A DNA stretch of 62,480 bases, counting the filler. It is 3 parts of 3 records of this genome, joined end to end, with 100 filler letters (N's around TTAATTAATTAA, not from the genome) between each part and the next. Parts side by side here need not be neighbours in the genome. Positions count along the whole stretch, not along the records: positions 52,004 to 62,480 come from SRR22947725_842; 2 more parts are not named here. One strand, 5' to 3'. Below are positions 51,029 through 62,480 of this stretch, one piece after another. Numbering within the stretch: the stretch's first letter is position 1; each line of letters starts with the position of its first letter. Below the pieces are notes generated by a model. The model was not told where the DNA came from. It saw only the letters and a program-made list of their open reading frames with translations, and ran no database searches. The position numbers were made by a program, and so were the translations under genes.

Positions 51029-51903
51029 ATGATAAGAAAAATATGTTTACTTATATTATTAGTATTCCAATTATCTTTCGGTCAACAGGGTAATATACCA
51101 CCTGAAATTTCATCTGAAAATTTAAATGAATTCTATTGTCCTCTAGGAGAGCAGAATATTGTCACCAGCTTTGATATAGTAGATCCAGATGATGATTCTA
51201 TATTAGCCTTATACATTCAAATATCTGAGGGATATGTTCAAGGAGAAGACTTACTTACCTTGACTGGTGTACACCCAGGTATTCAAGAAACTTGGGATCC
51301 AGTTTCTGGAAAATTAGAACTCAAAGGTCCAGGAGGAGGTGAAGCCTTATATGCAGATATAATCCCAGCTGTTTATGATGTTAGATTTAATAGTACTAAT
51401 AATAACCCAGTAGATAAGTCCTTCTCTTTTACTATTGGAAATGCTAATTTTTTACCATCAACTGGGCATTTCTATGAATATATTGATGTTCTTGGAATCA
51501 CATGGCAACAAGCCAAGACAGCAGCTGAAAATCAGTTTTATTTTGGTTTACAAGGATATTTAGCAACTATAATGAGTCCAGAAGAATCACAAATAGCCGT
51601 TGAACAAGCTAGTGCGACTGGATGGATTGGCGCATCAGACTTCACAAATGAAGGGCAATGGAATTGGGTGACAGGGCCTGAAGCAGGAACAAATTTTTGG
51701 AATGGTAACTTTAATGGATCAGCAGCAGCTGGAATGTATTCAAATTGGAATAATGACCCACCTGAACCTAATCAGACAGGAGAAGAAGATTTTGCTCACA
51801 TAACTGATCCTTCAATTGGCTTGATAGGCTCTTGGAATGACCTAAGTAATACTGGTCCTGGATCAGGGCCCTATCAACCCAAAGGATATATTGTTGAATT
51901 TGG
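51029..51903 (+). CDS. secreted protein with C-type lectin-like domain, 3'-truncated at linker
   Basis: Signal peptide, GHFYEY...ITWQQAK..A.....GYLATI...E, WIGASD...EGQWNW.TGPE, EPN and WND motifs. Confidence 0.82.
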
Positions 51904-52003
51904 NNNNNNNNNNNNNNNNNNNNNNNNNNNNNNNNNNNNNNNNNNNNTTAATTAATTAANNNNNNNNNNNNNNNNNNNNNNNNNNNNNNNNNNNNNNNNN
52001 NNN
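51904..52003. other. artificial contig linker N44-TTAATTAATTAA-N44
   Basis: Identical in structure to 22233-22332. Confidence 0.97.
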
Positions 52004-52434
52004 TGAAAACAGTAAATATTTATACAGATGGTGCTTGTAGAGGAAATCCTGGTATCGGTGGATGGGGTGTGTTAATTGAATATGAAGATTTTAATAAAGA
52101 ATTATTTGGTGGAGAGAAGCACACTACCAATAATAAAATGGAGCTTATGGCAGCAATTCAAGGCTTAAAAGCCTTAAATGAAAATTGCATTGTTCACCTA
52201 ACCACTGACTCAAAGTATGTGATGGATGGTATAAATAGCTGGATAATGAATTGGAAAAAAAATAACTGGAAGAACTCACAAAAACAGAGTGTTAAAAATA
52301 AGGATTTATGGATCCAATTAGATAAACTTAATGAACAACATGATGTAAACTGGCATTGGGTTAAAGGTCATTCAGGACATCCTCAGAATGAATTAGCAGA
52401 CCAATTAGCTAACAAAGGCATAGATACTTTATAA
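52004..52434 (+). CDS. rnhA: ribonuclease HI (first base of the start codon lost at linker)
   Basis: (x)TG AAA ACA... gives [35 protein letters not shown] and WVKGHSG...NELAD motifs. Confidence 0.96.
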
Positions 52435-53151
52435 ATGAATAAAAAATACATCATTCTCGATACAGAAACCACTGGCCTAGAGGTGCAGCAAGGACATAGA
52501 GTTATTGAAATAGGCGCAGTGCTTCTCAATGACAGAAAGAAGTCTGAAGAAAATTTTCATTCCTACCTTAACCCTGAAAGACTAATTGATGATGAGGCCT
52601 CTAAAGTACATGGCATTACAAATGCTGACCTTGATGACAAACCATTCTTCTCTGATATAGTTGAAGAGTTCCTTGAATTTATAGAGGGCTCAACTCTAGT
52701 TATCCATAATGCGCCATTTGATGTTGGCTTCCTTAATAATGAAATTAATTTAGTTTCATCTAAACTTCCAAAACTTGAAGATATATGTGAAATAGAGGAT
52801 TCATTATTAATCGCAAGAGATAAATTTCCTGGCCAAAGAAATTCTCTTGATGCTTTGGCAAATCGATTTGAGGTAACTGGCTATGATAGAAGTTTTCATG
52901 GAGCTTTGCTTGATGCAAATATTCTTGCAGACGTCTATATGATGCTTACGGGTGGTCAAAGTAAATTTGAATTCATGAATGATTCTTCCATAGCAAATGT
53001 TATTAAAAAAGATACAGCCAATAATTTAAGTTTTGAAGGCATTAATCTAGTTAGACTCAAATCAAATGATGAGTATGATCAAAGACATTCAAAAAGACTT
53101 TCAGAAATTTCTGAAAAGTACTCTATTGATACAATTTGGAGCAAACATTGA
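52435..53151 (+). CDS. dnaQ: DNA polymerase III epsilon subunit
   Basis: LDTETTG, IHNAPFDVGF, HGALLDA and MLTGGQ motifs. Confidence 0.96.
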   Translation: MNKKYIILDTETTGLEVQQGHRVIEIGAVLLNDRKKSEENFHSYLNPERLIDDEASKVHGITNADLDDKPFFSDIVEEFLEFIEGSTLVIHNAPFDVGFLNNEINLVSSKLPKLEDICEIEDSLLIARDKFPGQRNSLDALANRFEVTGYDRSFHGALLDANILADVYMMLTGGQSKFEFMNDSSIANVIKKDTANNLSFEGINLVRLKSNDEYDQRHSKRLSEISEKYSIDTIWSKH

Positions 53152-54536
53152 AAGTAGTTACAAGATTCGCGCCGAGCCCAACTGGAACGCTTCATATTGG
53201 AGGTGTTCGAACTGCTCTATTTAATTATGTGTATGCAAAAAAAATGGATGGTTTATTTCTAATACGAATTGAAGATACTGACAGACAACGCTCAACTAAA
53301 GAATTTGAAAAAAATATTTTAGACAGTCTTAGCTCTATAGGATTAAAACCAGATTTGGACCCTATAAATCAATCCGAAAGAACTGATATTTACACCAAAG
53401 CTGCAAATGAAATCTTCAATAGCGGCAATGCATATTACTGTAACTGTTCTAAAGATAGGCTTGATGAGATGAGATCACTGCAGCAGGCTAATGGCCAAAA
53501 GCCTCAATATGATGGCAAATGTAGAAACTTAAATCTAGAAAAATCTGACAATACTGTATTAAGGCTCAAGACCCCACTTGATGGCCAAATTATTATGAAA
53601 GATTATGTTAGAGGCGATATATCATTTAATAACTCTGAACTTGATGATTTAATAATCTTAAGAAGTGATGGAACGCCAACATATCATTTGTGCAACGTGG
53701 TTGATGATTTTGAACAAGGTGTAACTACTGTTATAAGAGGCGAGGATCACATCTCCAATACACCTCGTCAAATCCATATTCAACAAGCTCTTGGATATCC
53801 GGAGCTTGAGTATGCCCATCTTCCTTTGGTTCTTGGATCTGACAAGAAAAGGCTATCTAAAAGACATGCTGCCACTAGCCTTGAAGAATACAAGAACGAA
53901 GGATATCTCGACTCTGCTATTTTAAATACCCTGGCAAGACTGGGTTGGTCCAAGGGAGAGAAAGAGGTTTTTTACTTAAATGACTTGATAAAAGATTTTG
54001 AAATAACCGAAGTGCAAAAAGCAGGCGCAATTTTTGATATGACAAAGCTGGATTGGTTAAATACTCAGCATTTAGCAAACCTATCACTGGATGAATTTAA
54101 AACACACCTAAAACCTTTTCTAGTATCAATAAATATAAATATAAATGATCACCCTAAGTCTGATTTGTTAATTGATGCAATGAGATCTTCTGAATCTAAC
54201 TTATTAAATATTGCAAAAGGTTTATCACCTTATTTTAATGGTGTAGATGAATATGAGCCAAAGGCAGTTAAAAAGTTTCTTGCTGAATCAGGTAATGTGC
54301 TTTCATCAATATCCACTATATTAAATGACTTGGAGCATTGGAATGAAGAGAATATAGATATTGCTTTAAAAGAGTTTCAATCATCTTCAGGCTTACCTAC
54401 TCCTAAAGTTAATCAGCCTATTCGAATAGCGTTAACTGGTGGAACAAAATCCCCATCTCTTGGGCTAACTCTTGAGATTATTGGCAAAAATGATTCTTTG
54501 TTTAGAATTTCTAAAGCTTTAAATTTTATTAGCTAG
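53148..54536 (+). CDS. gltX: glutamate--tRNA ligase
   Basis: RFAPSPTG.LHIGG, RIEDTD, RGEDH and RLSKR motifs. The TTG start at 53148 has SD GGAG and a TTGA overlap with dnaQ. Confidence 0.96.
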   Translation: MKVVTRFAPSPTGTLHIGGVRTALFNYVYAKKMDGLFLIRIEDTDRQRSTKEFEKNILDSLSSIGLKPDLDPINQSERTDIYTKAANEIFNSGNAYYCNCSKDRLDEMRSLQQANGQKPQYDGKCRNLNLEKSDNTVLRLKTPLDGQIIMKDYVRGDISFNNSELDDLIILRSDGTPTYHLCNVVDDFEQGVTTVIRGEDHISNTPRQIHIQQALGYPELEYAHLPLVLGSDKKRLSKRHAATSLEEYKNEGYLDSAILNTLARLGWSKGEKEVFYLNDLIKDFEITEVQKAGAIFDMTKLDWLNTQHLANLSLDEFKTHLKPFLVSINININDHPKSDLLIDAMRSSESNLLNIAKGLSPYFNGVDEYEPKAVKKFLAESGNVLSSISTILNDLEHWNEENIDIALKEFQSSSGLPTPKVNQPIRIALTGGTKSPSLGLTLEIIGKNDSLFRISKALNFIS

Positions 54537-55436
54537 GCTTTTTACAAACTCTATAAATTTTTTAGATTCTTCGCTTATTGCTTTTGATTGATTGTTAAGC
54601 AGAACTATTTGGTAGGGAAGGCTCTCTTCAATCTCAAATATATCTACCTTAGTTTCATCACAATTCTTTGCTGTATATGAATCAACAAGGGCACTCCCCA
54701 TTCCAAGGCTTACAAGAGAGGCTGCACCACTATAGGATGAAACCTTGCCAGCTATATTACTTCCAATTGGTTTTTTATTAAAATGTTCAGTTAGGGAACT
54801 AACCCCATAGAATGAAATTAAATTTGTTATCTCTATAAAAGGCTCATGTGAAAAATGATCCAATTTGTATGCAGGTTTATTTTTATATATGTCTTTTGGA
54901 GAGATCATTACATGAGAACCTTTATGTATTATATGTCTTGAGTATTGGTTTTCATCTAGGTGATTGGACCCTCTATTTGAAATAGCTGGATCAAAACAAA
55001 TAACAATATCTATACTTTTATTATCAAGTCTGTTTAACAACTCATTGCTATTAAGATTTATAAAGTTAAATCCAGTTTTATTTCCTAACTTTTCATACTC
55101 TTTAAGTATCTTAGGCATAAGCGTAAGCATGATAGATGGTGTTGTTCCAATATTAATATCTTCAGAATCAAGCGGAATTAACTTCTCAGCTGTCTTATTG
55201 AAATTTTCAAGTTGAAAGATAACCATTGAAGCGTATTCATAGAGCTCATTTGCTTCATCTGTAGCTATAAGTTTTTTTGAATCCCTATTAAAAAGTTTAA
55301 AACCTAATTTTTTTTCAGTATATGAAATTGATTTACTTAAAGCCGGCTGAGAAACATTTAAAACATTGGCTGCTTTTGTAATAGATCCTTCTTTATAGAT
55401 ATGATAAAAAATTTCTATTTGTTTAGAATTAAGCAT
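54519..55436 (-). CDS. LysR family transcriptional regulator (alternative start 55454)
   Basis: HTH GSITKAANVLNVSQPALSKSI...EKKLGFKLFNR, about 305 aa, divergent from the TBDR. Confidence 0.93.
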   Translation of the reverse strand: MLNSKQIEIFYHIYKEGSITKAANVLNVSQPALSKSISYTEKKLGFKLFNRDSKKLIATDEANELYEYASMVIFQLENFNKTAEKLIPLDSEDINIGTTPSIMLTLMPKILKEYEKLGNKTGFNFINLNSNELLNRLDNKSIDIVICFDPAISNRGSNHLDENQYSRHIIHKGSHVMISPKDIYKNKPAYKLDHFSHEPFIEITNLISFYGVSSLTEHFNKKPIGSNIAGKVSSYSGAASLVSLGMGSALVDSYTAKNCDETKVDIFEIEESLPYQIVLLNNQSKAISEESKKFIEFVKSLANKI

Positions 55437-55452
55437 ATTAGAGCTACTATAC

Positions 55453-55467
55453 ATAACCTAAAGTTAT
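55453..55467. promoter_or_regulatory. putative LysR recognition site (T-N11-A palindrome)
   Basis: ATAAC-CTAAA-GTTAT in the lysR/TBDR divergent gap. Confidence 0.7.
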
Positions 55468-55499
55468 TTTTATAGTCGTTTTTATTATATCTATTTATA

Positions 55500-55529
55500 T
55501 AGACAACTTTACAAATGTAGTTTTATAAT
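55500..55529 (+). promoter_or_regulatory. putative sigma70 promoter of the TBDR operon
   Basis: TAGACA-N18-TATAAT, with SD AGGGGA before the ATG at 55571. Confidence 0.5.
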
Positions 55530-55570
55530 TAAGTTAGAAATTTATAACTATAATTCATAGGGGATAATGA

Positions 55571-58561
55571 ATGAAAACTATCAAATCTTTCTTGGTGCTA
55601 GCTCTAGCTATGCCATTTGTAATTCAAGCTCAAGACGATACTGCTGCAGCAGATGTTGAAGAGGTTGTTGTTGTTGGTACTCAAATTAAAGGCGCAAACA
55701 TTGCGGGAATTTTGCCAGTAACTGTCATTACAGCAGAAGATATAGAAGCACTTGGAGTTGATTCCGGTGATGAGCTTTTAGAAAATATTGCTGAACAGGG
55801 GCTTAACTATTTTAATGAATCAGAAATGGCATCAGGTGGAGTCAATGCTGCTAGGGGAGATATGGGAGCATATAACCTTAGAAATTTAGGAGTTGGTAAT
55901 ACTCTTACTTTATTAAACGGGAGAAGGCTTGTAACCTCACCAGGTTATCAAACTGAATTAATTGGTGGTGATTTTGTACCCACTACAACGGTTAATTCAC
56001 AGCTAGTTCCAGTATACGGCCTTGAAAGATTAGAAATTCTTAGAGATGGTGCTTCTGCTATTTATGGAGCTGATGCTGTTGCAGGTGTTGTTAATAATGT
56101 AATGCAATCTGATTATGAAGGTTTAGTAATTAGAGGAAAAGTTACAGCATTTGATCACTTTGAAACAGAAGATAAAACTATGTCCATTAAATGGGGTAAG
56201 AATTTTGGAAAAACAAATGTAAGTGCTTTTTTTGATAGTTATGACAGAGGTTCAATTGAAGCAAGTGAAGACCCAAGATGGGCAGATTCCGATCATAGAA
56301 AATGGGTTCCTGAAGATTCCCCTTGGTTTGGAAGCGCAAGTTTTAATAATACCTCCACTAACTCACTTTATGGCCAGTTTGATATGGTCAGTAGTTCAAC
56401 AAGTATTGCAGGAACAGCATACGATAGAGTATGGACTGACAGTTCTGGAGAGTTTGAAATATTCCCTCTTGGCGATCCAAGATGTTCAAATCGTTCAAGC
56501 CAAGATGGAGTTGTTTTTGATACTGGTTATGGAACTTGTATAGCTGAAGATGGTAATGGAGTAGAGAGATATAATTTATGGGGACTTACTCAAAAAAGAG
56601 GTAAGCTTGAAAGACAAAATCTCTTAGTATTTATCAATTCAGAGCTTTCAAATGGTGTTGAGACATTCACTGAAATTGGCTACTACACTTCAGAAAGTGA
56701 AAGAAGAAACCATCCTTCATATGCCTTTACATCTTCAAAGCATAGAGTTGGTCCAGACAATTATTGGTTAAACCAGATGACAGTTCCAGATGGAACTGCA
56801 ATATTTGCAGGTAAAGAGTTATATATTGATAACTATAGATATGCAGAAGTACCAAGAATGACTTATGTAGACAAAGAAACATATAGATTTCTTCAAGGTT
56901 TTAGAGGTACTACAGGAAATTGGGATTGGGAAACTGCATTAGTTTACTCAAAGGCTACATCTGATGACCTTACTAAAAACAGAATATCTAATACTTTATT
57001 AAAAGAAGCTTTATATGACGATACTCCAGCTGCTTATAATCCATTTAGTGCTGGTGTTGCTTCAAATATAGAAAGAGTTCTTGTTGATGTTACTAGGTTT
57101 GGTACAAGCTCATTAACATCTTTTGATTTCAAGATGGTAAACCCCGAAATGTTTACTTTGCCTGCTGGACCAGTAGCAGTTTTACTTGGTTTTGAGGTAA
57201 GAGATGAAGTTATTACTGATAATAGAGATGATAGACTGGATGGAACAATAGACTATTGTGACTATGAGAACGATTGCTATCCATTAGTTGCTGATGTTGT
57301 TAACTCAAGTCCTACTGGAGATGTATCGGGCGAAAGGCAGACTACATCATTGTTTGTTGAATTAAATGCTCCTATTACAGATTCTATTTCTACTCAACTA
57401 GCTGTTAGACATGAAAGTTCTGATGATTTTGCTTCTGCAACTGTTGGTAAGTTTGCTATAGGCTGGGAAGTAAATCAAAGCTTATCACTTAGAGCCTCTG
57501 CATCAACTGCATTTAGAGCTCCTAATATAATTCAACTTAATGAAGGTGGAGTTGTTAGGTCTGGAACAAGTGATGACTGGGTTGTTCAAAGAGTTCAAGA
57601 TGTTTTGAATGAAGCAGGTGGTTATGATGGTGATACAAGTATCACAGATTCAGATATAGACTCTTCATACACAATCCAAAGAAGAGCTGTTGGAGGAAAT
57701 AAGTTAGATGCTGAAGAATCAACTAATAGCTCTGTAGGTCTTGTTTATACTCCAGAAATGGTTCCTGGTTTAATTGTTACTCTTGATCAATGGTCTATTG
57801 AAAAAGAAAAAACTATTGGTTTGTTTGGACGTGAGAACCAAATTGTTAATGACATGCTTTTAAGATTTGAAAATGGTTTAAATAACTGTAATTCATTTAT
57901 AGGTGATCCATTGGTTGTTCGTGAAGCGCCAGATGCCGGAGATGCTGGATACTTTACTGCCGCTGGAATTTGTCCAGCTGGAGTAGTTAAGTATGTTCAA
58001 AATGATTATACAAACATGGCAACAAGAAACTTATCTGGAACTGATATTGGCGTTTACTATGATATCGACACCAAGTATGGAGATTTTGGACTTAAGTATA
58101 TTGGAAGTAAAACCGATGAATTCACTCAAGATGCATCAGGTGAATTTGCTTTCCTTCAATCACAAAAAGATGCTGGGTTAATTCCTGCTAATATCCCACT
58201 AGATGGATTTGGTGATTTGTTGGGTATGGACGGAAACTATGACACAAAACATACTGTAAAAGCATCATGGAGAATGGGTGACTGGGGGGCTACAATGTCT
58301 ATGCTTCAAAAAGGAGAGTTTTATCAAAATTCTTTAACTTTAAGCGATGGTACAAGATACGTAATTCCTGAAATGACTACTATCGATGCTACTGTTTCAT
58401 ATTCATTCAGAATGAACGGCAATAAGGCAAGATTAAGGTTTGCTGTTAAAAACTTAGAAGATGAAAGAGCGCCTTTAGCAGATAGGTATTATGGTTACTA
58501 TGCTGATGCTCATCAAGATTATGGTAGAAACTACTACTTAGATTTAAGAGTTACATTCTAA
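55571..58561 (+). CDS. TonB-dependent receptor
   Basis: Signal peptide, TonB box EEVVVVG, plug NLRNLG...TLLNGRR and ERLEILRDGASAIYGADAVAGVVN, C-terminal YLDLRVTF. Confidence 0.96.
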   Translation: MKTIKSFLVLALAMPFVIQAQDDTAAADVEEVVVVGTQIKGANIAGILPVTVITAEDIEALGVDSGDELLENIAEQGLNYFNESEMASGGVNAARGDMGAYNLRNLGVGNTLTLLNGRRLVTSPGYQTELIGGDFVPTTTVNSQLVPVYGLERLEILRDGASAIYGADAVAGVVNNVMQSDYEGLVIRGKVTAFDHFETEDKTMSIKWGKNFGKTNVSAFFDSYDRGSIEASEDPRWADSDHRKWVPEDSPWFGSASFNNTSTNSLYGQFDMVSSSTSIAGTAYDRVWTDSSGEFEIFPLGDPRCSNRSSQDGVVFDTGYGTCIAEDGNGVERYNLWGLTQKRGKLERQNLLVFINSELSNGVETFTEIGYYTSESERRNHPSYAFTSSKHRVGPDNYWLNQMTVPDGTAIFAGKELYIDNYRYAEVPRMTYVDKETYRFLQGFRGTTGNWDWETALVYSKATSDDLTKNRISNTLLKEALYDDTPAAYNPFSAGVASNIERVLVDVTRFGTSSLTSFDFKMVNPEMFTLPAGPVAVLLGFEVRDEVITDNRDDRLDGTIDYCDYENDCYPLVADVVNSSPTGDVSGERQTTSLFVELNAPITDSISTQLAVRHESSDDFASATVGKFAIGWEVNQSLSLRASASTAFRAPNIIQLNEGGVVRSGTSDDWVVQRVQDVLNEAGGYDGDTSITDSDIDSSYTIQRRAVGGNKLDAEESTNSSVGLVYTPEMVPGLIVTLDQWSIEKEKTIGLFGRENQIVNDMLLRFENGLNNCNSFIGDPLVVREAPDAGDAGYFTAAGICPAGVVKYVQNDYTNMATRNLSGTDIGVYYDIDTKYGDFGLKYIGSKTDEFTQDASGEFAFLQSQKDAGLIPANIPLDGFGDLLGMDGNYDTKHTVKASWRMGDWGATMSMLQKGEFYQNSLTLSDGTRYVIPEMTTIDATVSYSFRMNGNKARLRFAVKNLEDERAPLADRYYGYYADAHQDYGRNYYLDLRVTF

Positions 58562-58576
58562 AATGGTATAAACTTT

Positions 58577-58601
58577 AAAGGGAGCATGTGCTCCCTTTTT
58601 T
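58577..58601 (+). terminator. intrinsic terminator / stabilising hairpin after the TBDR
   Basis: AAAGGGAGC-ATGT-GCTCCCTTT followed by a T run. Confidence 0.85.
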
Positions 58602-58614
58602 ATTGGAATTAATT

Positions 58615-60114
58615 ATGCATGCATATAAGAATAAAGGTTTCTGGATAGGTTTGATGGCGTTTTTCATCATCCTATTGATTGGTATTAATGGAAGCTTGCC
58701 ATCAAGCTTAATTGCGCTAGATGGTACTGCCTTTGAAACAAATAAAGGTACACAATTTATAAATAGTCAGTCAGCATGGTTTGTTTTAGCTGTATTGGTT
58801 TTGATGGCAATTTGGTGGGCAACTGAAGCACTCCCCGTTGCAGTTACTTCCCTCTTGCCTTTAGCATTATTTCCTCTTTTGAATGTGGCAACCTTTCAAG
58901 CCTCAGCAAATCCTTATGCTAATAAAAATATTTATCTTTTCCTTGGTGGTTTTATTTTGGCGCTTGGTATAGAAAGATCTGGACTTCATAAGCGAATAGC
59001 TCTTGTAATGATATCTGCTATAGGGTCATCTGGAGAAAGGTTGATTGGTGGGTTTATGCTTGTTGCAGCAATGCTAAGTATGTTTGTGATGAATACTTCT
59101 ACCACTTTAATGCTTTTACCAATTGGATTAGCAGTTTGTACAGTAATAGCTTCTACAACTCCTGGGATTAGCAATATTCAAAGAAAGAATTTTGATACCG
59201 CTTTGATGTTAGGTATTGCATATGCGGCAACTATTGGTGGTATGTCCACTATTATTGGGACTGCGCCTAACATAGTTTTTGTAACATTTATGAGTGAAAC
59301 ATATGGAGTAGAAATTGATTTTTTTAGCTGGATGAAAGTAGGAGTCCCGGTATCAATTTCGATGTTAATAGCTGCCTGGTTTATTCTTGCAAAATATATT
59401 TTTCCTACAAATTTTAATTCCTCAAACGAAACTAGAATAGAACTTAATAAAATGGTTCAGGATTTAGGTCCCATAAGGAAAGATGAGATTAAAGTTGGTT
59501 TTATATTTGGACTTGCAGTTATTGCCTGGATGACAAGTAGGGTTGTTAGAACCCAATTTGGAATTGGGTTAGAGGATGCTGGCATAGCTATTATAATAGC
59601 TATACTTCTATTCATAATTCCTTCATCAGAAAATAATAAAGATTTAATGGTATGGACTGAGACGTCAAAATTACCATGGGGTTTGTTGTTACTATTTGGA
59701 GGCGGGCTATCTCTTGCTGCTCAAGTTTCTAGCACTGGTTTAGGTATTTGGATAGGGCAAGGTTTAACAGTCTTAAAAGATGTTGAACCAATAATATTAA
59801 TTTTTGCTATTGCTACTTTGATAATTTTCTTAACAGAAATGACAAGTAATGTTGCTACAACAAGTACATTTCTTCCTGTGATTGGTTCCTTGGCAATAGC
59901 TCTAGGGGTTGTACCAGTCTCCTTAACAATACCAGTGTGCTTGGCAGCAAGTTGTGCATTCATGCTTCCAGTAGCCACTCCCCCAAATGCAATTGTTTAT
60001 GGTTCAGGAAAATTTACTATAGCAACAATGATGAAAGCAGGTTTCTTTATTAATATAATTGGGATATTAGTAGTAACATTTTTCTCATATTATTTAGCAC
60101 CAATGGTTTTTTAA
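58615..60114 (+). CDS. DASS/SLC13 sodium-coupled anion (dicarboxylate) symporter
   Basis: WATEALP, MNTSTT, IGTAPN, LLFGGG, TEMTSN and AFMLPVATPPNAI motifs. Start moved to ATG 58615 because GTG 58588 lies inside the terminator hairpin. Confidence 0.92.
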   Translation: MHAYKNKGFWIGLMAFFIILLIGINGSLPSSLIALDGTAFETNKGTQFINSQSAWFVLAVLVLMAIWWATEALPVAVTSLLPLALFPLLNVATFQASANPYANKNIYLFLGGFILALGIERSGLHKRIALVMISAIGSSGERLIGGFMLVAAMLSMFVMNTSTTLMLLPIGLAVCTVIASTTPGISNIQRKNFDTALMLGIAYAATIGGMSTIIGTAPNIVFVTFMSETYGVEIDFFSWMKVGVPVSISMLIAAWFILAKYIFPTNFNSSNETRIELNKMVQDLGPIRKDEIKVGFIFGLAVIAWMTSRVVRTQFGIGLEDAGIAIIIAILLFIIPSSENNKDLMVWTETSKLPWGLLLLFGGGLSLAAQVSSTGLGIWIGQGLTVLKDVEPIILIFAIATLIIFLTEMTSNVATTSTFLPVIGSLAIALGVVPVSLTIPVCLAASCAFMLPVATPPNAIVYGSGKFTIATMMKAGFFINIIGILVVTFFSYYLAPMVF

Positions 60115-60115
60115 A

Positions 60116-61828
60116 ATGAAAAAAATTTACTCTATAATTTTTTATTTCTCATTTGTAGGAGCTCAAGATAGTTATATTGACTATGTTTCTCCTTTTCATC
60201 CTTCCTCAAGCTCAAGCGGGATGGTCGTTTCTCAAAACTACTTATCTTCAGAAATTGGTATAGAAATTTTAAATAAAGGAGGAAATGCAATTGATGCTGC
60301 TGTTGCTGTAGGATTTTCTCTGGCAACTACATTGCCTAGAGCAGGAAATCTTGGTGGTGGTGGCTTTATGTTAGTTTATTTAAAAGAAAGAAATGAAATT
60401 TTTTATATTGACTATCGAAGTAAATCCCCACTTAACTCAAATATTAAAGAATTATTTAACAAGAAATTGCCGAGAGATTATAAAAGAGTAAATTTTGATA
60501 TTGTTAAAAAAGGCTATAAAGCATCTGCAGTTCCTGGAAGTGTGGCTGGATTGTTAGATGCCCATGCTGCATTTGGAAAATTACCCCTTCAAGATATTCT
60601 TGAGCCTGTTATAAATCAAGCGCTTGCAGGTATAGAGGTTAGTTATGATTTAAATAAGGCAATTGAGAGCAGTCAGCAACTCAAGGAAGACCCAGAGTCT
60701 AAAAGAATTTATTACAAGGATGGTAAAGCGCTTAAAGTTGGGTCAATAATGAAGAGACCAGATTTAGCAAATACATTCACTATTATTTCAAAAAATGGGA
60801 AGAAGGGCTTTTATGAGGGAGAAATCGCTAATAAGTTTGTTGACTCTATGAAAAAGAATAAAGGTTTTTTTTCACATGAAGATTTACTTTCATATAAATC
60901 AACCACGAGTCATCCAATAGTTGGTTCTTATAGAAATAACTTAGTCTTTACAGCAGGTCCGCCTTCAGGTGGTGGCGTTGTTCTTTTAACAGCTTTAAAT
61001 ATCCTTAGTTTTTATGACCTTTCGTTACTGGATAGCAACTCTGCAAAAACATATCATTTATTGGCTGAAGCATTAAGAAGGGGTCATAACAACAGATCAC
61101 ATCAGATTGGAGATCCAAATTTATATAATGTACCTATTGATGTTTTACTATCAAAAGAAAGAATGAAAGAATTAGCTAAAGGTTTAAATATGAACAAGGC
61201 TACACCAAGCTCTAAAGTTAAACCTATGAGAGTTCTCAAAGAAAGCAGAGATACTACTCATTATTCAATAATTGATAAAGAAGGCAATGCAGTCTCAAAT
61301 ACCTACACCCTAGGTTACTCATTTGGCTCTGGTGTAACAATTCCTGGTACTGGAATATTGATGAATAATCAGATGAATAATTTTGCTTATAGATATGGGG
61401 ATTCATCGATTGAAGGAAGGGTGGCAAGTCCTGCAAATAGATTTCAGCCCGGAAAAAAGCCAATGAGCACCATGGCTCCATCTATGGTTTTTAATGAGCA
61501 GGGTGAGCTTATGCTAATAACAGGTTCTCCTGGAGGGTCTTATATACCTGCAGCAATATTAAGAGTAGTTTCTGGAGTAATAGATTTTAAGTTAGGTATA
61601 GGCGAGGCAACTATGCTTCCAAGAATACATAAGGATTGGCCTTATTCTGGGCTGGATTATGAAAAAACGATGAGTAAAGATACTGCTGACATATTAACTA
61701 ATTTAGGACACAAGCCAGAAACTAACAAAACTATGGGCAGCACCCAAAGTATTTTTATTAAAGATGGAATTAACTATGGATACTCAGATTTAAGAAGACC
61801 CAATGCAGGAGTTGCAACCCAAGATTAA
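60116..61828 (+). CDS. ggt: periplasmic gamma-glutamyltransferase-family Ntn hydrolase with altered donor pocket
   Basis: GGNAIDAAVA, GNLGGGGF, DYR, AVPG, autoprocessing D|TTHYS, GSPGG and DLRR motifs plus a signal peptide. Confidence 0.93.
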   Translation: MKKIYSIIFYFSFVGAQDSYIDYVSPFHPSSSSSGMVVSQNYLSSEIGIEILNKGGNAIDAAVAVGFSLATTLPRAGNLGGGGFMLVYLKERNEIFYIDYRSKSPLNSNIKELFNKKLPRDYKRVNFDIVKKGYKASAVPGSVAGLLDAHAAFGKLPLQDILEPVINQALAGIEVSYDLNKAIESSQQLKEDPESKRIYYKDGKALKVGSIMKRPDLANTFTIISKNGKKGFYEGEIANKFVDSMKKNKGFFSHEDLLSYKSTTSHPIVGSYRNNLVFTAGPPSGGGVVLLTALNILSFYDLSLLDSNSAKTYHLLAEALRRGHNNRSHQIGDPNLYNVPIDVLLSKERMKELAKGLNMNKATPSSKVKPMRVLKESRDTTHYSIIDKEGNAVSNTYTLGYSFGSGVTIPGTGILMNNQMNNFAYRYGDSSIEGRVASPANRFQPGKKPMSTMAPSMVFNEQGELMLITGSPGGSYIPAAILRVVSGVIDFKLGIGEATMLPRIHKDWPYSGLDYEKTMSKDTADILTNLGHKPETNKTMGSTQSIFIKDGINYGYSDLRRPNAGVATQD

Positions 61829-62479
61829 TTATTTTCTATAATCTAAAGGCGGATCTCTGTCCCCTAAAAGGGGTACGTAATTAAAAGCATTTCCTGTGTT
61901 AGCTTTATGTTCTAATTTTGCTTCTTCAATCAACTCAGGGCTTTTAAACAACTCTATAGCACTCGAGGTTAAGGTTTTAGCAGCTAGTTCAGCACCTTTT
62001 AATCCAATTGACGTTCCTCCGGATGCAACAGCTTGCCATGAATGCGCTGATGTACCAGGCACCCATGAAGAGGTTCTAAAACCGGCTGTTGGAACATTCC
62101 AGCTAATATCTCCAACATCTGTTGACCCATAAGATTGAGTTTTTTGAAAAGGTTGTATCAATTCTTCTTGCCCAAAAAGCTCTTCTTTTAAAACTAATGT
62201 CTTAGCAATACTTTTAGCATATTCTAATTCTTGATCTGTATATGAAATACCACCATGTGACATAAGATTTTTATGTATTAATTTTTGAAGAGTTAGATTT
62301 GGTAGTAAAGAATAATTACCATGCATTACCTCATAGGTTATTTTAGTCTCAGTTCCAAGGGCAGCCCCTTCGGCAGCCTTAACAACTCTTTGAAACAAGC
62401 TTTCAACAATATCCATCTTTGGATGCCTAACATAGTAATAAACCTCAGCCTCTTCAGGAACAACATTTGGAGCCAACCC
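61829..62479 (-). CDS. M20 amidohydrolase, AbgB (p-aminobenzoyl-glutamate hydrolase B)-like, 5'-truncated
   Basis: GLAPNVVP...YYYVR, AEGAALGT, GSTDVGDISWNVPT, PGTSAHSWQ and PPLDYR motifs. Confidence 0.88.
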   Translation of the reverse strand, partial: GLAPNVVPEEAEVYYYVRHPKMDIVESLFQRVVKAAEGAALGTETKITYEVMHGNYSLLPNLTLQKLIHKNLMSHGGISYTDQELEYAKSIAKTLVLKEELFGQEELIQPFQKTQSYGSTDVGDISWNVPTAGFRTSSWVPGTSAHSWQAVASGGTSIGLKGAELAAKTLTSSAIELFKSPELIEEAKLEHKANTGNAFNYVPLLGDRDPPLDYRK

Positions 62480-62480
62480 A

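Follow-up and report, generated by a model that had tools for sequence, protein, structure and literature searches.

The window analysed here is a stretch of 62,480 nucleotides made up of three joined parts, of which positions 52,004-62,480 come from SRR22947725_842, and it carries on the plus strand an open reading frame (ORF) of 570 amino acids (60116..61828) for a predicted exported N-terminal nucleophile (Ntn) hydrolase of the gamma-glutamyltransferase (GGT) family with a remodelled donor pocket. As judged from its aligned residues, the catalytic apparatus and the alpha-carboxylate site of this protein are intact, and the closed, acidic site that holds an alpha-ammonium group in canonical GGT is dismantled and open. 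We name the clade bearing this signature GGT*, the ORF being its member in the window. Based on the pocket and on the genes that accompany it, we propose, with a confidence that stops just short of even, that GGT* is a periplasmic amidase acting on gamma-glutamyl amides in which the alpha-amine is acylated. We tentatively suggest that its natural substrate could be the murein stem peptide L-Ala-gamma-D-Glu-mDAP (mDAP, meso-diaminopimelate), cleaved at the bond joining Glu to mDAP. It is likewise a possibility, of modest probability, that GGT* is the first GGT-family murein-peptide amidase (a gamma-D-Glu-mDAP hydrolase) and the core of a TonB-fed route for cell-wall debris in most SAR86 and in scattered Alpha- and Gammaproteobacteria.

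The window protein aligns with the PF01019 profile (E 3.3e-144; 481.9 bits, cut-off 27) over positions 2-511 of 512 and passes the cut-off of TIGR00066 (480 bits against 357.85), while its 447.4 bits against the E. coli-type equivalog NF007187 fall below the cut-off of 990. Its top solved relative in HMMER searches is the E. coli GGT precursor 2e0w (E 3.1e-116), and the E. coli enzyme is 38% identical to it in a six-row alignment. An AlphaFold2 model built from 15 clade sequences (predicted local distance difference test, pLDDT, 87.8; predicted template-modelling score 0.90) has the GGT fold, with 2e0w as its closest superposition in the PDB (template-modelling score 0.93 on the target); the lid-loop blocks have lower pLDDT values of 80 and 71, and residues 1-26 are unstructured, with values below 50. 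The translation begins with a basic and then hydrophobic stretch running up to a Gly-Ala, a signal-peptide-like N-terminus of about 17 residues (60116..60166, plus strand, the end being approximate) that suggests export of GGT* to the periplasm. The traits of MEROPS T03 Ntn hydrolases are present, namely the Thr380 nucleophile, Thr398 and the oxyanion pair Gly473-Gly474. Because every family-defining trait testable here was found, we place GGT* in the GGT family; because two of the three amino-group ligands and the lid Tyr are replaced, it does not qualify as a canonical glutathione-type GGT.

These replacements were read in E. coli numbering, verified against the actual E. coli ggt (L231) in 266-row and six-row alignments. 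As the initial annotation had proposed, the small subunit aligns without gaps: the HMMER alignment to 2e0w has none from the nucleophile to the NNQM motif, and the DNA places the Thr380 codon at 61253, the GGT codon at 61313-15 and the AAT codon at 61379-81, exactly as annotated. By alignment, and all on the plus strand, Thr380 (61253..61255) corresponds to T391, the nucleophile and autoprocessing site, and Thr398 to T409; Gly400 (61313..61315) replaces Asn411; Gln419-Met-Asn421-Asn422 (61370..61381) replaces Q430-M-D432-D433; Glu433 (61412..61414) replaces the lid-loop Tyr444, a position occupied by Tyr or Phe in 113 of 151 rows (the query and 150 representatives); Ser451-Thr452 (61466..61471) replaces S462-S463; the oxyanion pair G483-G484 is retained as Gly473-Gly474 (61532..61537); and at 60416..60421 Arg101 retains the carboxylate-binding R114 and is followed by Ser102 in place of the acidic E115. 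The Gly for N411, the Asn for D433, the Ser-Thr pair and the retained Arg had all been correctly recognised in the initial annotation, to which Tyr444 to Glu433 and Glu115 to Ser102 are additions. The nucleophile Thr, the Thr409 equivalent, the Gly-Gly pair and the Arg are invariant in a 15-sequence alignment (A1) reaching down to 36% identity.

The three alpha-carboxylate ligands Arg114, Ser462 and Ser463 are all represented (Arg101, Ser451 and Thr452, the last with its hydroxyl retained), whereas of the alpha-amino ligands Asn411, Gln/Glu430 and Asp433, now Gly400, Gln419 and Asn422, two of three are replaced; the lid-loop aromatic has given way to Glu433, and Asn422 supplies the Asn at the Asp433 position that is the class IV acylase state. 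When 48 GGT* sequences are compared with 179 canonical ones, position 115 is Ser in 94% of the former and Glu in 99% of the latter, and position 430, Glu in 98% of the canonical set, is Gln in GGT*, so that E115, E430 and D433, three acidic pocket-side residues, are gone together across the clade. Further switches are S463 to Thr, L461 to Met, I488 to Pro, S295 to Gly and A333 to Gly; positions 115, 463, 461, 488, 295 and 333 lay outside the criteria by which the two sets were separated. In sum of likenesses, GGT* shares with E. coli Ggt (2e0w, 2dbx) the family, the fold, a predicted exported precursor, the Thr nucleophile, Thr409, Gly-Gly, Arg114, Ser462 and the spacing of the small subunit, and differs from it by N411G, D433N, D432N, Y444E, S463T and E115S.

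Published work on the same positions gives these changes a context. Tyr444 hydrogen-bonds Asn411 and so gates the GGT pocket; class IV acylases have Asn at 433, and E. coli D433N gains activity on glutaryl-7-aminocephalosporanic acid (glutaryl-7-ACA); Y444A boosts the activity of D433N on a donor free of the alpha-amine; and alteration of positions 433, 444 and 411 in the laboratory is reported to favour such donors in general (PMC8062742). GGT* resembles the engineered E. coli D433N and D433N/Y444A/G484A and B. subtilis E423Y/E442Q/D445N enzymes described there, in which 433, 444 and 411 (equivalent to B. subtilis 423) are altered (PMC8062742), but unlike these mutants, which were selected on glutaryl-7-ACA, its set is natural and clade-wide, has Gly rather than a bulky residue at 411 and retains Gly484. 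As the pocket retains its carboxylate site, loses its cation site and has more room, the donor would be one that lacks a free cation and needs space at that point. The initial annotation had likewise held that the enzyme is not a glutathione GGT and takes a donor without a free alpha-amine. This is borne out in part: the co-varying clade-wide residues, the retention of a canonical GGT in the same genomes and the linkage to receptor, transporter and deacylase genes speak for it, and the 82% of hydrolytic activity that E. coli D433N is reported to keep (PMC8062742) speaks against it, since gamma-Glu hydrolysis by GGT* may persist.

The substitutions are not sequencing errors, for the query and every one of the 120 homologues listed (78-97% identity) have the motifs TYTLG, NNQMNNF and PMSTMAP. 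Written as a degenerate DNA pattern, the signature matches the window once, against none expected from 100 shuffles. An exhaustive search of 1.84 billion representatives yielded 27,371 relatives; among the best 150 of these together with the query, Asn stands at position 411 in 116 rows, Gly in 14, Glu in 14 and Ser in 5, and position 433 has Asp in 131 rows and Asn in 14, with Gly/Ser411, Gln430, Asn433, Thr463 and a non-aromatic residue at 444 co-occurring in the same sequences. We define GGT* by Gly/Ser411, Gln430, Asn433 and Thr463, the lack of an aromatic at 444 and membership of one clade, and the window gene has all of these.

In a FastTree phylogeny of 138 rows the window gene falls in a well-supported set of 11, made up of ten signature rows and one with Ile at 433. 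An IQ-TREE analysis (quick search, LG+G4) was run on 76 rows with the seven signature columns removed, comprising 28 of the 48 signature rows (thinned at 75% identity), the first 34 of 65 thinned canonical rows and the first 14 of 28 thinned others. It unites all 28 signature rows and four derived variants in a single set of 32 (Shimodaira-Hasegawa-like approximate likelihood ratio test 90), groups 23 SAR86 rows with a support of 99, and nests the 32-row set among canonical proteobacterial GGTs, including that of E. coli. The pocket substitutions are conserved within the clade to about 40% identity; GGT* thus has a single origin and is under purifying selection. The suggestion that the residue pair at 411 and 433 marks a marine clade is right as to the clade and too narrow as to its habitat, as it also holds sequences from Sphingorhabdus, Caulobacter, Steroidobacteraceae, Arenicella and Pseudoteredinibacter. 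The members outside SAR86, from the cultured Pseudoteredinibacter isoporae, Arenicella, Steroidobacteraceae, Sphingorhabdus, Caulobacter and Sphingomonadaceae, are annotated as plain gamma-glutamyltransferase throughout. One Steroidobacteraceae form (P0133, 859 amino acids) has about 280 additional C-terminal residues, which gave no match in Pfam; some fragments in its cluster are labelled poly(3-hydroxybutyrate) depolymerase by one source.

The closest named records to the window gene belong to uncultured SAR86 bacteria (L017, 66%; L018, 64%), and the genome G299, of the window's species, has a 97% identical orthologue with identical neighbours. Of 201 genomes from the order of the L017 genome, 169 have a match at E <= 1e-100 and about 122, by hand count, a best match at E <= 1e-135; these 122 we take to be carriers of GGT*. 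The stricter threshold was calibrated on 40 ORFs (in 37 distinct places) with at least 45% identity to the query, all of which have Gly411, Gln430 and Asn433 and 38 of which have Ser-Thr at 462-463, against nine ORFs at 34-42% identity, all canonical (Asn, Glu, Asp, Asp, Phe/Tyr, Ser-Ser). A strict signature pattern was found in none of 233 genomes of the order of genome G001 and in none of 400 other genomes from the class of G237 (the Sphingorhabdus genome of locus L022), so that GGT* is rare in the latter sample; since the strict DNA pattern misses even L017 and L018 (Leu at 434 or Ser at 429), tallies made with it undercount. G001, considered as close kin at the window locus, was set aside because the flanking genes uvrB and sucC share only 68-73% DNA identity with it; it carries a canonical-type GGT (39% identity) and a distant paralogue.

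At least one additional PF01019 gene is present in all five of the GGT* genomes searched. G299, with 1.3 Mb, has three GGT-family paralogues, a canonical GGT, GGT* and a third, divergent type, and canonical GGT and GGT* stand in tandem in L019, L142 and L143; that the canonical gene is kept beside GGT*, sometimes in tandem, points to division of labour rather than drift. The third paralogue (G299:C1:404330-405835, L233; also L104 and L105) is about 560 amino acids long with a signal-peptide-like N-terminus, is about 30% identical to both other types, and has in its pocket Ser at R114, Gly at E115, Tyr at N411, Arg at 430, Leu or Met at 433 and His-Thr at 462-463. In L019 (3050-6167) a gene of the PF00144 family (beta-lactamase / DD-peptidase) lies immediately upstream of the canonical GGT that precedes GGT*, and in P0132 (960 amino acids) PF00144 and GGT domains are fused in one protein, a hint that a serine peptidase is a partner of canonical GGT too.

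The closest natural counterpart that we found in print is Bgh1 of Helicobacter bilis, a second GGT copy with D422N, Y433H and S452T beside an active canonical paralogue; it is reported to show no GGT activity, and cells expressing both paralogues no glutaryl-7-ACA acylase activity (PMC3279353). Compared by its published description only, Bgh1 shares with GGT* the status of a natural second copy, the D to N change at 433, the loss of the lid Tyr and the S to T change at 463; it differs in that the Asn411 change is not listed for it and no receptor context is reported in that description (PMC3279353).

Against this background GGT* could still be an ordinary gamma-glutamyl hydrolase, a high-affinity or differently regulated, mainly hydrolytic isozyme for scavenging organic sulphur or nitrogen. 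It passes the TIGR00066 equivalog cut-off, D433N leaves most hydrolysis in place, and the SAR86 genome papers interpret every ggt as glutathione-cleaving (PMC3358033; bioRxiv 10.1101/2024.03.17.584874). We nevertheless regard this as improbable, as the three acidic residues and Asn411 were lost jointly and their loss persists clade-wide, the canonical copy is retained in the same streamlined genomes, canonical GGT genes are without the receptor linkage described below, the NF007187 score is 447 bits against 990, and Bgh1, with part of the signature, is reported without GGT activity (PMC3279353). The extreme alternative is a protein that stays unprocessed or catalyses nothing, for instance a binding protein or a decaying paralogue. 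It could appeal to the inactivity of Bgh1 in all assays tried (PMC3279353) and to the SAR86 genome G368, whose copy has in-frame stops; it is very improbable given the invariant catalytic residues of the 15 sequences of A1, the confident fold model and the retention of the gene by a streamlined lineage, in about 122 of its 201 sampled genomes. The G368 copy (G368:C2:272733-273770) has an in-frame TGA and TAA and, like a metagenome-contig GGT* split across two frames (L165:209-1914), looks broken and could be a pseudogene or an assembly error.

We then examined the gene neighbourhoods of GGT*. Loci were gathered from metagenomes, scanned with a sub-alignment covering the signature region, and from genome contigs, were then classified as GGT* or canonical, and were counted where at least 3.5 kb of DNA was available on one side, a receptor homologue being scored within 6 kb. 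Of 35 GGT* genes, 30 have a receptor of the window type (homologues 32-67% identical) within 6 kb; at the remaining five, either the upstream DNA is missing or the flanks are both shorter than 3.6 kb. Among 92 canonical GGT genes only 4 have such a receptor nearby, and each of these adjoins a GGT*. Two loci, L022 and L151, were left unclassified in this count, and both have the receptor. Unlike canonical GGT genes, GGT* is therefore receptor-linked.

In the window the order is LysR (minus strand), TonB-dependent receptor, DASS symporter, GGT* and a convergent M20D gene. The LysR-type gene (54519..55454, minus strand; PF00126 and PF03466) is divergent from the receptor gene and probably regulates the module; a homologue adjoins the module in L017, L147, L149, L022 and L154-L157. 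The TonB-dependent outer-membrane receptor (55571..58561, plus strand; 996 amino acids) has Plug and beta-barrel domains. The DASS (SLC13/VcINDY-type) sodium:di/tricarboxylate symporter (58588..60114, plus strand; PF00939; TIGR00785 at 290.7 bits, cut-off 198.6), with NaCT, NaDC and VcINDY as its best solved relatives, ends one nucleotide before the start of GGT*. The M20D-family amidohydrolase (61829..62479, minus strand) is represented by its C-terminal 216 amino acids, truncated at the window end and recognised by TIGR01891 on the fragment; its stop codon abuts that of GGT*. A full-length orthologue in L017 scores 254.9 bits against TIGR01891 (cut-off 153.75), full-length copies have signal-peptide-like N-termini, and the nearest solved relatives are HmrA and Xaa-Arg dipeptidase. 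Among the 30 best SAR86 loci, DASS adjoins GGT* in 28 and M20D in 26, with M20D nearby in L139, L142, L146 and L147; every one of the more distant SAR86 loci (45-58% identity) has the receptor, and in them M20D shifts position but remains near. A DAACS/SDF carrier follows GGT* in the SAR86-type loci L163, L165 and L191.

Outside SAR86, twelve non-SAR86-type loci have enough flank (L022, L025, L034, L151-L158 and L214). A DAACS symporter (PF00375) lies between receptor and GGT* in five (L034, L152, L153, L156, L157). An Amidohydro_3 enzyme, present in four (L022, L154, L157, L214), has as its best solved relatives D-aminoacylase (1m7j, E 2.4e-56) and N-acyl-D-glutamate deacylase (3gip, E 1.6e-50), and the three copies with cleanly read N-termini (L022, L154, L214) are signal-peptide-like there. 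A D-amino-acid-dehydrogenase-like gene without a signal peptide occurs in five loci (L022, L153-L156), RidA in two, a LysR regulator in five (L022, L154-L157), a DctB/DctD-like sensor pair in two (L034, L152), and in L157 a close homologue of the E. coli L-Ala-D/L-Glu epimerase (1jpd, E 3.8e-86), an enzyme that is a partner in E. coli murein recycling. Apparent N-terminal extensions of GGT* by 350-470 amino acids (L034, L152, L156) proved to be artefacts of read-through in high-GC DNA, the DAACS gene lying in another frame. DguR is reported as a LysR regulator of D-Glu catabolism in Pseudomonas. The set of LysR, FAD dehydrogenase and RidA recalls the D-Glu locus dguRABC in the gene content that this locus reportedly has.

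In light of these linkages, we propose that GGT* is a self-processing Ntn hydrolase derived from canonical proteobacterial GGT and would act as follows. The adjacent TonB-dependent receptor would carry the substrate into the periplasm; the constancy of this partner suggests a substrate scarce enough, or large enough, to need a receptor. GGT* would there split the gamma-amide, turning N-acyl-gamma-Glu-X into N-acyl-Glu and X, the likeliest candidate substrate being L-Ala-gamma-D-Glu-meso-DAP(-D-Ala), cut after the Glu. An exported deacylase or dipeptidase would next cut the N-acyl-Glu product, M20D in SAR86 and a D-aminoacylase-type enzyme elsewhere; the recurrence of exported amidohydrolases from two unrelated families, according to lineage, suggests that a second enzyme for N-acyl-amino acids or dipeptides works alongside GGT*. 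In the last step an acidic product would be taken up by the dicarboxylate-type symporter, DASS in SAR86 or DAACS elsewhere, the importer too being drawn from two unrelated families. The divergent LysR would control the set. Finally, D-glutamate bearing an acyl or aminoacyl group is what the neighbouring genes for D-aminoacylase, D-amino-acid dehydrogenase, RidA and epimerase suggest. The D-isoglutamate of murein leaves its alpha-carboxylate free, carries L-Ala as an acyl group on its alpha-amine and is joined to meso-diaminopimelate through a gamma-amide, and we favour the stem peptide because it is the sole abundant natural compound fitting both pocket and partners.

The importers lend themselves also to a des-amino acylase, in which GGT* would cleave glutaryl-, succinyl-, 2-oxoglutaryl- or 2-hydroxyglutaryl-X, in the way that class IV cephalosporin acylases act on glutaryl-7-ACA, and the freed dicarboxylate would be taken up by DASS or DAACS; dicarboxylates are the textbook cargo of DASS and of DctA-type DAACS, and L034 and L152 have DctB/D-like sensors. 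Asn433 is the class IV state, which confers glutaryl-7-ACA activity on E. coli GGT (PMC8062742), a D406N-type GGT variant is reported to hydrolyse many glutaryl amides (PMC11421214), and the class IV cephalosporin acylases of the Pseudomonas SE83 AcyI type share with GGT* the GGT superfamily and a reported Asn at 433 (PMC8062742, PMC3279353). We rate this unlikely, though first among the rivals. The change of N411 to Gly and the loss of Tyr444 enlarge the amine space, which engineered acylases fill (B. subtilis E423Y, PMC8062742), the M20D and D-aminoacylase-like partners would have no role on a plain dicarboxylate, and the H. bilis cells with both paralogues, including Bgh1 with its D422N, are reported without glutaryl-7-ACA activity (PMC3279353). 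Moreover, E. coli GGT matches GGT* far better (E 3.1e-116) than does the one acylase reference of this comparison, the 'cephalosporin acylase' 2nlz (E 3.4e-43, 26% identity).

In-chain residues of polyglutamates, with their acylated amine and free alpha-carboxylate, match the pocket as well, and GGT* might thus hydrolyse poly- or oligo-gamma-glutamates such as folyl-polyglutamates, F420-type tails or poly-gamma-glutamate. The M20 clan includes folate-cleaving and aminobenzoyl-glutamate hydrolases, and the M20D protein matches the AbgB-like 3io1 (E 1.3e-15). We put the probability of this as low: the D-aminoacylase, D-amino-acid dehydrogenase, RidA and epimerase neighbours are ill-suited to L-glutamyl folates, and there are no folate or pterin genes among the annotated loci. 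As to M20D itself, HmrA and Xaa-Arg dipeptidase match it better than 3io1, and its assignment as a folate or aminobenzoyl-glutamate hydrolase was rejected save as a minor rival. Bacillus anthracis CapD is a GGT-family enzyme that acts on amine-blocked gamma-glutamyl residues, as we propose for GGT*, but it is a Gram-positive surface transpeptidase and distant, the similarity being low in the large (E 1.7e-34) and above all in the small subunit (E 1.2e-09). Among the substrates that the initial annotation had offered, then, the gene context favours the N-acylated gamma-(D-)glutamyl groups of murein peptides; folyl-polyglutamate is without specific support, and the glutaryl and succinyl amides fit the dicarboxylate importers only.

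Several points weigh against the murein-peptide proposal, in addition to the hydrolysis retained by D433N. The known cargo of DASS carriers is di- and tricarboxylates rather than glutamate or dipeptides, and M20D enzymes as a rule set L-amino acids free. The receptor gave no informative match in NCBIfam or the PDB, and so offers no characterised relative from which a ligand might be read. D-amino-acid genes occur in none of L025, L034, L151, L152 and L158, five of the twelve non-SAR86-type loci, and are not adjacent to GGT* in SAR86 loci; an L-Ala-D/L-Glu epimerase query found no match in five SAR86 genomes, in four of which a DadA-like gene sits elsewhere. RNA-labelled library contigs from three studies (at least 95% identity) cover the receptor, the symporter, both ends of GGT* and M20D, one contig of 1,614 nucleotides spanning the symporter into GGT*; these libraries are without a DNA control, their depth cannot rank genes and uncovered parts carry no meaning, and they give only weak evidence that the module is transcribed.

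The reaction proposed for GGT* would be the same as that of MpaA and the NlpC-P60 gamma-D-glutamyl-meso-diaminopimelate amidases. The folds of these enzymes are unrelated to GGT, being those of an M14 metallopeptidase and a cysteine peptidase, and MpaA is cytoplasmic; the likeness is one of function alone. Full-text searches, with supplements and figures outside their scope, found no description of the GGT* clade or of a GGT-family murein-peptide amidase.

Links between GGT and murein-peptide genes may also reach beyond GGT*: on the Emcibacter contig L024 a canonical GGT has, about 3.6 kb upstream, an L-Ala-D/L-Glu epimerase homologue (2-394) that shares 52% identity with the one in L157. In L162 (999-4717), which is SAR86-type but lacks both DASS and M20D, another GGT-family gene, an arginase-family gene and one for a DUF4886 protein come before the module. 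Within the window, a terminator-like hairpin (58577..58598, plus strand), a consensus match with a nine-pair stem and then a T run, comes directly after the receptor gene and extends over the GTG listed as the symporter's start, the true start of which may be the ATG nine codons downstream; attenuation by read-through between receptor and symporter is possible. Terminator-like sites number 8 in the region against 4.7 expected, and a promoter scan of the region, with 26 sites against 31.6 expected, carries no information. The G+C content is 0.33-0.36 at 52000-60000 and 0.25-0.31 over most of the window, and synteny with gltX is conserved across SAR86 despite the higher G+C of the module. A 308-residue ORF at 51029-51955 has a weak C-type lectin match (PF00059, E 2e-05), unusual for a streamlined marine bacterium.

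Taken together, the substitutions are real and conserved, the proposed pathway is coherent and the interpretation given in the initial annotation is sensible. SAR86 belong to the most abundant bacteria of the surface ocean. A 1.3 Mb genome of this lineage retains three GGT-family paralogues with differing pockets, of which GGT*, carried by about 122 of the 201 sampled genomes of the order, combines a dismantled site for the amino group with its own receptor, importer and deacylase. SAR86 ggt genes are currently interpreted as having one function, the cleavage of glutathione for organic sulphur (PMC3358033; bioRxiv 10.1101/2024.03.17.584874), and if our proposal holds, metabolic models of SAR86 would need correction. 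The GGT family would gain a natural amidase for N-blocked or D-isoglutamyl substrates, of interest to biocatalysis as the same positions have been engineered there, and marine uptake of peptidoglycan-type material would gain a testable gene marker. If GGT* is instead an acylase of the glutaryl type, it would offer a candidate answer to what an Asn433 pocket of the class IV acylase type does in nature; should the murein substrate prove right, it would provide a concrete enzyme route for the D-amino-acid-rich, peptidoglycan-derived part of marine dissolved organic nitrogen.

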